IMG/VR virus record: IMGVR_UViG_3300032050_000002
Strand: one strand, 5' to 3'
Origin: a virus
Lineage: Duplodnaviria > Caudoviricetes
Length of the DNA: 64,000 nt
The notes under the pieces are model-generated. The model saw only the letters and a program-made list of their open reading frames with translations, was not told the DNA's origin and searched no databases. Both the position numbers and the translations under genes were made by a program. Numbering within the stretch: the stretch's first letter is position 1; every line of letters starts with the position of its first letter. Positions 5,018-63,819 of this stretch are shown here, in pieces.

Positions 5018-5521
5018 TTATTTTTCTTTAATCAACATTAAACATCTCTTTAAATATTCTTTAGCTCTTGGAGTTGGGTCAGAGTGATTCAATACCTTTT
5101 CAATATCTTTGACTAATTCTTCACCATGTTCATTTTCTTTATAAAGTTCTATCACTTTATCCATAGCTCTGTGACAATCATTATTTGTCTCATCAAAATA
5201 ATGTTTATTTCTATAATTTCTTAAATGATTTAACAATTCATAAGATAAGTGTTCACCACCATCAGAAATATTTGGATGTAATCTTAGAGTTCTTAAAATG
5301 TCTAAAGTGTCAATCATTCCTTTTATACCCCCACGTCTTTTTTTAACGTTAGATGTATAATCATTGTAATCGTCAGAAGTTCCAACAATTTCATCCAAAG
5401 GCATTGTGTTGTCAGTTAAACATCTTGGTTTTTTTTCTTCTTTTTCTTCACCCATTTCTTCCAATAGGTGTTTTCTGATTACTTTACGAATATCAGATTC
5501 TTTTATCTTAATTTTTTTCAT
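5018..5521 (-). CDS. Hypothetical protein with IKES/LLEE leader
   Basis: ORF track; N-terminus MKKIKIKESDIRKVIRKHLLEE. Confidence 0.7.
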   Translation of the reverse strand: MKKIKIKESDIRKVIRKHLLEEMGEEKEEKKPRCLTDNTMPLDEIVGTSDDYNDYTSNVKKRRGGIKGMIDTLDILRTLRLHPNISDGGEHLSYELLNHLRNYRNKHYFDETNNDCHRAMDKVIELYKENEHGEELVKDIEKVLNHSDPTPRAKEYLKRCLMLIKEK

Positions 5522-5565
5522 AATTAAATATTATTATACACATATAAATATATCTATAATAAGAA

Positions 5566-5760
5566 TTAATCAAGATTTTTTTCGTTAATCTGAACGGTCT
5601 TTTCGAGCCAAATATCAAATATCATAAAATAAACCCACCAAGTTAGTTTTTGAAACTCAACCCCTGAAGAGTCTTTCCACGACACAAATAATAAGTAAAC
5701 AATATTAATCATAATTGCTAACCTTATTATCACTAATATAAAAATAAAAAAGTTTTTCAT
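5566..5760 (-). CDS. Small membrane protein
   Basis: Two hydrophobic segments; start moved to MKNFFIF. Confidence 0.5.
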   Translation of the reverse strand: MKNFFIFILVIIRLAIMINIVYLLFVSWKDSSGVEFQKLTWWVYFMIFDIWLEKTVQINEKNLD

Positions 5761-5761
5761 T

Positions 5762-6187
5762 TTAATGTAATTTAATTTCAAATCTATCTTTCATCTGTTC
5801 GATTTTATCATCAGGAACTCCGTGAACATTCTCTCCATTATGTCTATTTTCAACAATGATAGTAAACACTTTATAACCATATTTTTTCGACAGTTCAAAA
5901 TAATGTGTCATTTCCCACTCCATAGTAAAAGTGTTAGAAACTACAATCTCACGATACCATTGGTCGTTAACCATACTATCTTTCATATAAGTCTCAACTA
6001 AATCCTGACAATACTTATGAGCATCTTTTATCTTAGACCCATCGAACTTATATTCACCTGTTTCTTTATCAATAAAATATTTGTCCGCCTCACACACCAA
6101 AAAATCTGAATTAACCAATTTTTTAGCGAATGTTGATTTACCACTACCAGGTAATCCACGAACTATGTATAAAACTTTTTCATCCAT
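5762..6187 (-). CDS. P-loop kinase (AAA_33 / polynucleotide-kinase-like)
   Basis: IVRGLPGSGKST Walker A, CEADKYF, VVSNTF, HGVP motifs. Confidence 0.85.
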   Translation of the reverse strand: MDEKVLYIVRGLPGSGKSTFAKKLVNSDFLVCEADKYFIDKETGEYKFDGSKIKDAHKYCQDLVETYMKDSMVNDQWYREIVVSNTFTMEWEMTHYFELSKKYGYKVFTIIVENRHNGENVHGVPDDKIEQMKDRFEIKLH

Positions 6188-6227
6188 AATACAATTATAA
6201 GGATATTTATTTGGAAAGACAAATATT

Positions 6228-60813: not shown

Positions 60814-60836
60814 ATTAAAAACAAAAAAACACTGTA

Positions 60837-61328
60837 ATGGCAGCAAGCCCAATTCAAAACATAAAATATTACAAACAAGTTAAAGTTGTTTATACAAAAG
60901 ATGTGCCGAATCAAACTATTGCACCGGTATTTAAAGAAATCGAAAATTTAACAGGAGAATTAGGTTTTCCAACGCTTCAAAAATGGTCATCAATGTTACC
61001 TGTTATTGATTATAAAAATAATAAATATTATACTCTAAAAATTTTTGGTGAATTAATAGAAGGTAATTCTTCATTTTTTATTTCTAACAGTGATGTAGAC
61101 TCAATTATATCTTCTGGTGCTTTTGATATAAATCTTGGAATAACTTATACTAAAAACGAAAATGGTTTAGTGGTTGAATCCGCTCAAGGTTTAGATGGAT
61201 ATGTTAATAGACTTTATATTGAAAGTGCAAAAGAAGTAATTTATGATACACCTACAGGTAATCAACTTTTTAACTTGATTAAAATGAATGATGGTTCAGA
61301 AATAATCACTAAATACAATTTACCATAA
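60837..61328 (+). CDS. Hypothetical beta-rich protein between scaffold and capsid genes
   Basis: ORF track. Confidence 0.65.
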   Translation: MAASPIQNIKYYKQVKVVYTKDVPNQTIAPVFKEIENLTGELGFPTLQKWSSMLPVIDYKNNKYYTLKIFGELIEGNSSFFISNSDVDSIISSGAFDINLGITYTKNENGLVVESAQGLDGYVNRLYIESAKEVIYDTPTGNQLFNLIKMNDGSEIITKYNLP

Positions 61329-61353
61329 TAAACTAAAAAAAACACAAAAAAAA

Positions 61354-61875
61354 ATGACAGAAAAAGTTGCAGATTTTGCAGGTGTTAAACCTCAACCGTC
61401 TGGTTACTTTGTAAGTATTAATAATATTTACAAACAAAATGGTGTAGTGAGTTTAAAGAGTGGTTTTGGTGATAGACTAGTATTAGATAGGAGTCTTAAT
61501 TTACCATTACAAATTAGTACTAATTTGGTAAGTAGAGTTGTTGATTTAGACGGTAAAACAAATTTAAAAGGAGCGTTTCAAGTTATTCTTAATACTTCTG
61601 TAAATAAAATGACAAGTTTCTTTGTTGATACCGAAACTGGTAATAATATTATTAATAATATATCTAATAATATTAATTTTAAAGAATTATTTACTACAGA
61701 GGTTAGAAATGGAGTAACTTTTGCAAAGTTAATACCAAATACTAATCCGGTAACAATAAATTTAGCTGTAGTAAACAACATTCAAACATTTAAGTATTTA
61801 TATGGAGAAGGGCAAAGTGTATTTAATTTATACACATTAAACGATGGAACTACGTTTTTAGTTCCGAATAAATAA
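61354..61875 (+). CDS. Hypothetical beta-rich protein between scaffold and capsid genes
   Basis: ORF track. Confidence 0.65.
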   Translation: MTEKVADFAGVKPQPSGYFVSINNIYKQNGVVSLKSGFGDRLVLDRSLNLPLQISTNLVSRVVDLDGKTNLKGAFQVILNTSVNKMTSFFVDTETGNNIINNISNNINFKELFTTEVRNGVTFAKLIPNTNPVTINLAVVNNIQTFKYLYGEGQSVFNLYTLNDGTTFLVPNK

Positions 61876-61908
61876 AAAAATAAATAAAAAATAAAAAAAA
61901 AACAAAAA

Positions 61909-63819
61909 ATGGGAGCATTATTAGAATCAGGTCTTGTTGGTAACATTGGTTTAAAACATTTAAAAGTTATCAAAGAAGACACAATCACAAAATGGGATAA
62001 ATTAGGATTCCTAGAAGGCCTTAAAGGTCACCTAAAAGAGAACGTGGCGCAGTTATATGAAAACCAAGCGTCATTTTTGATAAACGAAGCAACTTCAGAA
62101 GGTTCTAACGGAGCATTTGAAACAGTTGTATTCCCTATCGTTAGACGTGTATTCTCTAAATTATTAGCGAATGACATCGTATCTGTACAAGCTATGAACT
62201 TACCTATCGGTAAATTGTTCTACTTCGTACCTAAGATTCAAGGTTATAATAATGGTAATTATGGGGCGGTAGGTCCTTTAGCGGGAGAATCAGGAGCACA
62301 TTACGCACCAGTAGGTTCACCAAATAGACCAGCAACAGACGGAGCAGCATTAGCAGGGGGTTACGACCCAAATCCGGCTTATTCACCTGGTTCTTACAAC
62401 CCAACTTACAAGAAAAATCTTTATGATTTATTCTATGAAGGAAATGAGGCGGCTTTAGACCCTCCAGGTTTATTTGACTACTCTAAAGGTAGATGGTCAG
62501 CTATGACTATTAACGGTCCGATTGTTGTTTGGGAAAACAGTGATTTAGTTACTTTAGCAGATTCTTCTGTTGATTTAAAAGACCAAAATGTTAGAAAATT
62601 AATCGTTAAATTATGTGGTTTCAATAGTGCGGCAGGTGCTGGTAAATTAATTGGACCTGATGGTAACGAAATGGATACAGAAACTTTCTTATCTGATTTG
62701 AAAATTTTCTATAACGGTTCACTTGACGCTTTCGCAACAGGAGGTTGTATTACTAATTTAACTAGTGAAGGAAGCGCTCCAAAACCATTATTATTCCGTG
62801 TTGTAACACAACAATATGGTAAAGGTATCGTTGATTACGGTAGTACTTATCAAACTACTTGGCCAGTTGACGGTAACGGAGGTTCATTTAATAATATCTG
62901 TAATGCAAATGGTTGTATTTTATTAGAAGTTGACCTTTCTTGTCCCGCTTGTGCTGATTGTGATTCTACATCTTTAGATGGTTACACAGGTATTACAGTT
63001 GTTGACCAAGATTTATTAACAGGTTCTACTTTCACGGCTGTTTACAGACGTTATGAAGAACTTGAGTTTGAAGACAAAATCGGTGAGGTTTCTTTTGAAC
63101 TTGATTCTGTTACAGTTTCTGTGACTGAAAGAAAGTTAAGAGCACAATGGTCACCAGAACTTGCTCAAGACGTTGCAGCATTCCATAACATTGATGCTGA
63201 GGCTGAATTAACGGCTTTATTGTCTGAACAAGTTGCGGCTGAAATTGACCGTGAAATCTTACGTGACTTACGTAAAGGTGCGGCTTGGAACTTACGTTGG
63301 GATTATAACGGATGGAGAAGAATTAAACAAACTACATCTTACACTCAAAAAGATTGGAATCAAACATTGATTACAACTATCAACCAATTATCTGCTCAAA
63401 TTCACAAGTCAACTCTTCGTGGTGGAGCTAACTGGATTGTTGTATCAAGTGAGGTTTCTGCAATCTTCGATGACTTAGAATACTTCCACGTATCTAACGC
63501 TTCACCAGAGCAAGACCAATACAACATGGGTATCGAAAGAGTAGGTACTTTAGCAGGTCGTTACCAAGTATACCGTGACCCTTATTTCCCACCAAATCAA
63601 ATTTTGATTGGACATAAAGGTACATCGTTACTTGATACAGGTTACATCTACGCACCGTACGTACCTCTACAATTAACACCTACAATGTACAATCCATTCA
63701 ACTTTACGCCTATCAAAGGTATTATGACCAGATACGCGAAAAAAATGGTAAATAACAGGTTCTACGCAAGAATTACCGTTGACGGAGTTCGTACATTCGA
63801 TTTAAGAGAATTGAGATAA
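61909..63819 (+). CDS. Major capsid protein (T4 gp23-like) with large Cys-containing insertion
   Basis: FPIVRRVF, VSVQAMNLPIG, RKLRAQWSPELAQD..AFHNIDAEAEL..LLSEQVAAEIDREI, YAPYVPL, GIMTRY. Confidence 0.97.
   Translation: MGALLESGLVGNIGLKHLKVIKEDTITKWDKLGFLEGLKGHLKENVAQLYENQASFLINEATSEGSNGAFETVVFPIVRRVFSKLLANDIVSVQAMNLPIGKLFYFVPKIQGYNNGNYGAVGPLAGESGAHYAPVGSPNRPATDGAALAGGYDPNPAYSPGSYNPTYKKNLYDLFYEGNEAALDPPGLFDYSKGRWSAMTINGPIVVWENSDLVTLADSSVDLKDQNVRKLIVKLCGFNSAAGAGKLIGPDGNEMDTETFLSDLKIFYNGSLDAFATGGCITNLTSEGSAPKPLLFRVVTQQYGKGIVDYGSTYQTTWPVDGNGGSFNNICNANGCILLEVDLSCPACADCDSTSLDGYTGITVVDQDLLTGSTFTAVYRRYEELEFEDKIGEVSFELDSVTVSVTERKLRAQWSPELAQDVAAFHNIDAEAELTALLSEQVAAEIDREILRDLRKGAAWNLRWDYNGWRRIKQTTSYTQKDWNQTLITTINQLSAQIHKSTLRGGANWIVVSSEVSAIFDDLEYFHVSNASPEQDQYNMGIERVGTLAGRYQVYRDPYFPPNQILIGHKGTSLLDTGYIYAPYVPLQLTPTMYNPFNFTPIKGIMTRYAKKMVNNRFYARITVDGVRTFDLRELR

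Follow-up and report, generated by a model that had tools for sequence, protein, structure and literature searches.

A 64,000-nucleotide stretch of the IMG/VR virus record IMGVR_UViG_3300032050_000002 (Caudoviricetes), hereafter the window, encodes a set of otherwise unrelated proteins that bear short amphipathic peptide tags. The tags are modular and under selection at the protein level, they end in a site of fixed geometry (hydrophobic-hydrophobic-x-Glu), and a cognate protease is encoded in the same genome. We think it probable that T4-like prohead targeting, followed by gp21-type cleavage, explains the tags. Ejection of the tagged bodies with the DNA is given slightly less than an even chance. 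The window is the head module of a Far-T4-like jumbo phage, uncultured and from freshwater, whose host is probably a member of the Bacteroidota.

Tag classes and their carriers

A sequence-only reading of the window had proposed a single portable zip-code on unrelated proteins. All of the segments that it quoted are present in the open reading frames (ORFs) named; its coordinates refer to the start codon where a tag is N-terminal and to the end of the ORF where it is C-terminal. They do not form one family but at least four classes, here A to D, plus a family-specific leader on ORF 11149 (ORFs are named by their first coordinate); none is homologous to the T4 tag by profile score. Class A reads K-K-I-I-R-L-T-E-S-D-L, a helix, then V-I-x-E; class B reads F-I-I-T-E-E-E-K-x-R-I-L-x-M-H, a helix, then Y-L-x-E; and class C reads M-K-I-I-I-T-E-S-Q, a short helix, then L-I-x-E. 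These three are mainly N-terminal and share a layout of basic hydrophobic strand, (T/S/D)-E, helix, and a predicted cut site 6-15 residues on. Class D (L-x-E-E-I-x-R-I-K-x-L) is often C-terminal.

Tag profiles were trained on two complete relatives of the window, G001 and G002, which form the comparison set, with each protein's own family left out of training. The cut-off of 12 bits comes from a real-sequence null; shuffle-derived thresholds had proved too lax, and hmmsearch with very short hidden Markov models was too insensitive for tags. The profiles recover ORFs 5018 (12.6 bits), 9066 (21.5), 10041 at its N-terminus (12.1), 25367 and 26997 (31), 32585 (17.1), 33097 (24.2) and 58231 (20.8; not listed by the earlier reading), and 31040 weakly (10.8). 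The leader of 10858 is left unscored by profiles A-D, which also miss the leader of 11149. The tags of the window are as follows (minus and plus denote strand; the arrow marks the predicted cut).

5459..5521, minus: class A N-terminal tag of ORF 5018-5521, residues 1-21, ending LLE↓E (profile; kept in orthologs)
9645..9698, minus: class C N-terminal tag of the conserved all-helical ORF 9066-9698, residues 1-18, ending LINE↓G (profile; E18 invariant)
10041..10100, plus: class B-like helix at the N-terminus of ORF 10041-10511, a conserved gene (profile, orthologs)
10455..10499, plus: C-terminal D-like helix after L-x-E in the same ORF, 10041-10511 (the G001 ortholog scores as class D)
10858..10938, plus: divergent leader of the conserved ORF 10858-11115, ending (L/I)-x-E↓Q (site kept in orthologs)
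11149..11277, plus: family-specific leader of ORF 11149 with three (L/I)xE sites (kept in orthologs)
12908..13147, plus: helical stretch inside ORF 12068-13627 that has several spaced hydrophobic-x-E sites, two of the Glu being invariant
26372..26461, minus: class B tag of 30 residues, ending LLNE↓E, on the peptidoglycan (PG)-binding and TseH-like protein 25367-26461 (profile, Pfam)
27927..28016, minus: class B tag, DNA-identical to 26372-26461, on the PG-binding protein 26997-28016, which has a different C-terminal domain (DNA comparison)
32078..32155, minus: N-terminal class D-like helix between two L/I-N-E sites, ORF 31040-32155 (weak profile score)
33047..33097, plus: C-terminal class D tag, ORF 32585-33100 (profile)
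33625..33663, plus: C-terminal class D tag, ORF 33097-33666 (profile)
58231..58275, plus: class C tag, ORF 58231-59220, inserted between the protease and scaffold genes (profile)

At 12 bits or more, the tagged proteins number 90, and their bodies fall into 67 unrelated families (window 8, G001 46, G002 36 proteins), about one tenth of the ORFs of the three sequences; the set still holds a few false positives, for example G001 275254. Among the loosely tagged families, 92 of 126 have bodies found in one genome only, and related bodies bear different tags or none. The class B profile has 1,296 matches among 1.84 billion cluster representatives, and in the top 150 the match nearly always starts at residue 1. 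The 134 class B bodies fall into 89 families, and the one match examined adjoins a Gp23 gene. As in T4, otherwise unrelated proteins have a short N-terminal segment in common, here a predicted propeptide. A tblastn search of phage records with a 25-residue tag gave no matches, and an ESM Atlas search with a tag returned unnamed clusters only, below 0.9. G001 also has about ten scattered paralogous genes of 130-170 residues with class C tags (body family 109; L110:10757-14671 and other sites), which appear to be an expanded cargo family.

Tagged proteins are mostly small (median 158 residues), with some cargo of 300-600 residues that has cell-wall domains. Recognisable domains are PG-binding, M23, TseH-like, OmpA, LysM and M78, the member bearing the OmpA match being left unassigned; most bodies match no Pfam family. 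N-terminal hydrophobic stretches are rare in tagged proteins (2/90 vs 14/159), and the cell-wall-domain cargo lacks signal peptides. ORFs 9066, 10041 and 10858 are each present in 78-80 of 80 related loci. They are near-universal core genes, and therefore part of the tagged set may be head-core, structural or ejection proteins, not swappable cargo.

The cargo had been predicted to include cell-wall enzymes, annexin-like domains and nucleotidyltransferase (NTase) domains. Cell-wall domains are indeed tagged, but the M23/NTase/GH19 protein 43388 has no recognisable terminal tag by profiles A-D, and the annexin match (PF00191) of ORF 11149 scores 15.6 bits against a curated cut-off of 25. We treat the annexin label as a lead only. 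After its leader, this protein has a hydrophobic Gly/Ala stretch, the weak annexin-like region and a weak match to an endolysin family. ORF 43388-45664 (plus strand) combines an NTase-like domain with M23, PG-binding and GH19 domains in one fusion protein; in G001 the ortholog ends after the NTase part, and an (I)-K-E↓S at the junction is a candidate internal processing site. The 25367 and 26997 genes are identical in DNA from the promoter motif to just beyond the LLNEE codons, and a second time across the PG-binding domain, which indicates recent module copying. The TseH-like body has no relatives found in viral contigs.

The internal segment of ORF 12068 is a candidate internal propeptide; the homolog in L266 and L305 is a separate ORF that begins at this segment. 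The protein (12068-13627, plus strand) joins a variable N-terminal domain to a conserved module of helices, which some relatives encode by itself. Two cysteines that are invariant in the module (alignment A10) hint that a disulfide forms and that the destination is oxidising. In structure models, both 9066 (pLDDT 60) and the C-terminal part of 12068 (pLDDT 70) are all-helical and have no informative fold match; the models neither support nor exclude a pore-forming role. Orthologs of ORF 6228-6809 (plus strand) begin with a helix that ends VLRE↓S. This helix is lost in the window copy and in L264, where the start is M-E-S, a natural tag deletion.

Predicted cut site, protease and selection on the peptide

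Besides a terminase and a portal, the window encodes a prohead protease of the S77 family, a gp23-like capsid protein and a scaffold of acidic make-up.

26467..26473, minus: TATTTAT, putative late-promoter-like motif, an example upstream of tagged and head genes
53875..55701, plus: portal (gp20-like), homolog of the annotated immuto portal
57204..57926, plus: prohead protease, gp21 / peptidase S77 family (ELNHP and SSRG motifs)
59308..60813, plus: scaffold (gp22-like), by position and acidic make-up
60742-60810, plus: scaffold end, a conserved LIE↓S site and a terminal helix like class D tags (sequence likeness)
61909..63819, plus: major capsid protein (gp23-like), by tblastn and alignment with T4 gp23
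62074-62088, plus: capsid FLINE↓A, which lines up with FLTE65↓A, the propeptide cut of T4 gp23

The best named relatives of the capsid protein are an uncultured 484-kb phage, Mel-JY01, Flavobacterium phage immuto and RM378, at 37-44% identity (best tblastn matches). By tblastn identity, this places the window in the Far-T4 neighbourhood of RM378 and Immutovirus. Closer capsid relatives, at about 78% identity, are lake viral contigs of up to 321 kb. In the capsid protein (61909-63819, plus strand), about 280 residues (roughly 110-385) are inserted that have no counterpart in T4 gp23; several conserved cysteines lie within them.

The protease matches PF03420 at 81 bits, and its His and Ser motifs (ELNHP, SSRG) are the same as those of T4 gp21 in the alignment. 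T4 gp21 cleaves after L/I-X-E and removes propeptides of 7-65 residues; T4 Alt and gp21 itself lose C-terminal pieces too (PMC9026906). In the window, FLINE60↓A of the capsid protein aligns with the T4 cut FLTE65↓A and is invariant or nearly so in 38 relatives. LLES, which had been put forward together with LINE, does not align with the T4 cut and was rejected as its homolog. The genome thus encodes both a gp21-family protease and a gp23 propeptide that is predicted to be cleavable.

The tags end in the same L/I-X-E motif. At the ends of the top class B matches, P4 is aromatic, P3 is Leu in 99%, P2 is free and P1 is Glu in 93%, after which conservation collapses; these figures are partly circular because the set was picked by profile. 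Two non-circular tests agree on the site. When proteins are picked by the tag core only, a downstream hydrophobic-hydrophobic-x-E is found in 11/13 for class A (one offset), 10/14 for class B and 12/24 for class C, with 1.1-2.0 expected. In an alignment of 9066 orthologs selected on the body (43 sequences), only 7 columns are invariant; E18 is among them, and the preceding residue varies freely. The leader site of 10858 is kept in 39 of 49 orthologs.

Genes in these genomes have two types of upstream motif: TATTTAT, before head and tail genes, and TAnnTTTG, which we take to be the Bacteroidota host promoter. Their roles as late-promoter-like and host-type motifs, respectively, are putative. 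A strict site (hydrophobic-L/I-N/T/S-E) lies in the first 40 residues of 44 of 204 TATTTAT genes against 6.4 expected from shuffles, an enrichment of about 7-fold, and in 5 of 75 host-promoter genes (Fisher p=0.004 between the two). These counts cover the window and its two complete relatives; the window alone is too small for the promoter contrast (p=0.04-0.27). The claim that related short segments recur on unrelated proteins therefore stands above chance. The (I/L)xE sites first pointed to are enriched in the strict form near the N-terminus, but plain (I/L)xE is only weakly so (121 observed vs 92 expected) and was rejected as stand-alone evidence because it is too common.

In tags on unrelated bodies, 35-43% of identical residues use different codons, compared with 43-53% for independent codons. 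Silent sites are near saturation and the amino acids are kept; therefore selection acts on the peptide. No tag was found on sheath, tube, hub, neck, terminase or portal, though most of these genes lie behind TATTTAT, so the tag is not simply a late-gene trait.

The scaffold end and known systems

The scaffold ends in LIE↓S and a helix, F-L-R-M-K-D-L-M, that is conserved in the window's clade; it can also be recognised in immuto, Mel-JY01, RM378 and two huge phages. A profile built from six scaffold ends alone ranks class D tags near the top in G001 and G002. The immuto scaffold end, R-W-Q-K-L-A-G-I-I, nearly matches two leaders, R-M-Q-K/F-L-A-G-I-I. Likeness of class D tags to the scaffold C-terminus is high in G001, G002 and immuto and moderate in the window. 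Two ORFs without a Pfam match (60837-61875, plus strand) separate the scaffold gene from the capsid gene, which are adjacent in G001 and G002.

In HK97-fold phages such as P22, T7, SPP1 and 80alpha the scaffold C-terminus is the coat-binding part. The coat-binding helices of these phages are also short, terminal and amphipathic, and class D tags appear analogous to them through their likeness to the window's scaffold end. Encapsulin cargo-loading peptides are likewise comparable to terminal amphipathic helix tags. Since scaffold contact with the capsid protein's N-terminal region is general in HK97-fold phages (PMC9546572), class D tags may dock at the coat site that the scaffold uses. Modelling a class D tag in complex with the capsid protein gave a score of 0.00, which is no evidence either way.

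Leaders with an N-terminal hydrophobic-hydrophobic-x-E outnumber expectation in immuto (20 vs 8.8), Mel-JY01 (15 vs 8.1) and the 484-kb phage (46 vs 14.2). In the cultured Flavobacterium phage immuto_2-6A, ORFs with tags lie at 1803, 25061, 102294, 111675, 113188, 117631, 118632 and 125241 of its record. The 595-kb phage LR756511 (L238-L256) has a few leaders like T4's own, such as M-K-T-F-A-E-W-M-E-E and M-R-S-F-R-Q-Y-I-T-E (for example at 438735, 452013, 487260 and 574780). A literature search, with most subscription papers outside its reach, found no description of such tags and no virion proteomics of immuto.

The capsid targeting sequence of T4, which gp21 removes from IPI-III and Alt, is likewise a short terminal peptide on unrelated, variable proteins (PMC9026906, PMC3012670). 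T4 IPII and IPIII leaders end FIAE↓A, and the window tags also end in hydrophobic-hydrophobic-x-Glu; as in T4, a gp21-family protease and the aligned gp23 site are in the same genome. Unlike the T4 tag (10-19 residues, on about four proteins), the window tags are 15-43 residues long, form at least four classes, are also C-terminal and internal, and occur on roughly 10% of genes, with cargo of up to 300-600 residues that has cell-wall domains; they are known here from sequence alone. We consider functional kinship with the T4 targeting sequence most likely, by analogy and not as a member by sequence. In SPN3US and phiKZ-like giant phages, propeptides of head ejection proteins are cut after A-x-E by gp245 (PMC10052503, PMC5694885). 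As with the window tags, N-termini are shared there by diverged paralogs, the long multi-cut propeptides of SPN3US (PMC10052503) resemble the internal segment of 12068, and the hydrophobic segment exposed after cleavage of gp47 may be compared with 11149.

Weighing the readings

We propose that the short amphipathic helix of late-expressed proteins would dock into the assembling prohead core or the inner shell. The gp21-family serine protease would then cut after hydrophobic-hydrophobic-x-Glu, as motif and homology suggest, taking the tag off and freeing the body inside the head. For class D, the helix, often C-terminal with the Glu site ahead of it, would use the scaffold's docking site on the coat. 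Conserved core tagged genes are likely head-core or ejection proteins, and the large variable set, including cell-wall-binding and lytic domains, would probably be delivered with the DNA. We infer docking, cleavage, packaging and ejection. We favour prohead targeting and cleavage because of the S77 protease motifs, the T4-aligned capsid site, the fixed terminal hydrophobic-hydrophobic-x-E with a free x, the protein-level selection, the untagged tail, neck and terminase proteins, and the cell-wall cargo without signal peptides.

Several findings weigh against this reading. The N-termini of T4 IPI-III score -3 to -21 bits with the four profiles, and P1' is frequently Gln, whereas Ala follows the known T4 cuts of IPIII and gp23. 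RM378 has the protease and no enrichment of N-terminal leaders (6 vs 5.8). The window's own class D tags rank moderately under the scaffold-only profile, and the covariation of scaffold and tag rests on two clades only. DnaK and the Clp ATPase each hold 5-6 (I/L)xE sites, a motif that alone is common. The 36-46 tagged proteins per genome are far above T4's few internal proteins. Cell-wall enzymes without signal peptides could also be holin-released lysins.

The tagged proteins could instead be core or scaffold filler (gp67/gp68-like) or structural parts of the inner head, degraded or left behind, and not an injected arsenal. The clustering of 9066, 10041, 10858 and 9745 in 71-80 of 80 related loci would fit this, as would the many spaced sites of 12068 and 55724, like those of T4 core proteins that are cut to pieces (PMC9026906), and the lack of Pfam matches for most tagged bodies. 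We hold it improbable, given that 92 of the 126 loosely tagged families are confined to a single genome and that some bodies are folded enzyme or cell-wall domains behind one terminal site. Less probable again is a role of the tags in recognition by the chaperone or protease machines that the phage itself encodes, or in directing proteins to a different late structure, for example the membrane or the tail. Terminal helices that are short and amphipathic typify adaptor or degron signals, and the window encodes DnaK (2583-4433) and a Clp ATPase (40403-42439), but this account leaves unexplained both the likeness to the scaffold end and why the tags end at a Glu site that is fixed in position, leaves P2 free and matches the T4-aligned cut of the capsid; tail proteins are also untagged.

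The least credible account is that the leaders have no protein function and either travel with a mobile DNA module made of promoter and gene start or arise by chance in an A/T-rich, Lys/Ile/Glu-rich proteome. The block shared by 25367 and 26997, identical from promoter to LLNEE codons, is what a DNA passenger would leave. The account is largely refuted by the kept amino acids at near-saturated silent sites, together with the class B ends and the invariant E18. Intact C-terminal and internal tags, the shuffle enrichment and the 1,296 class B clusters also count against it. DNA spread may explain how tags arrive at new genes, not why they are retained.

Prohead targeting with cleavage can be extended to a multi-address scheme, which we regard as speculative and rather unlikely as a whole. 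Several non-homologous tags would direct roughly one tenth of the proteome to docking sites that differ from tag to tag within the prohead, one class would copy the coat-binding helix of the scaffold and co-vary with it across clades, and the injected set would be readable from sequence.

Other genes of the window include a phage-encoded PAS histidine kinase, a response regulator and a third membrane-type ORF (76-2219, plus strand); relatives of the kinase and of the third ORF lie at 251564 and 253593 in G002. DnaK (plus strand) is identified from its sequence. The ClpA/B-type ATPase (minus strand) lacks the usual N-terminal domain, and the divergent ORF 42573-43058 (plus strand) ends in a UVR-like helix and may be its adaptor. 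A region of about 1.4 kb (33900-35350) has no long ORFs and higher G+C; ARAGORN finds only a tRNA-Met there (35266-35340), and other structured RNAs may lie in it.

The principle of such tags is already known from T4; the gain here is in scale, in diversity and in a docking idea that is open to testing. The likeness between class D tags and the scaffold's end suggests a binding partner for a capsid-targeting peptide and an origin for tags of this sort. If the proposed targeting is true, sequence would allow the proteins carried in the head, and perhaps injected before expression begins, to be listed for a freshwater clade that is uncultured and abundant, and this would yield thousands of candidate counter-defence and envelope-breaching proteins.

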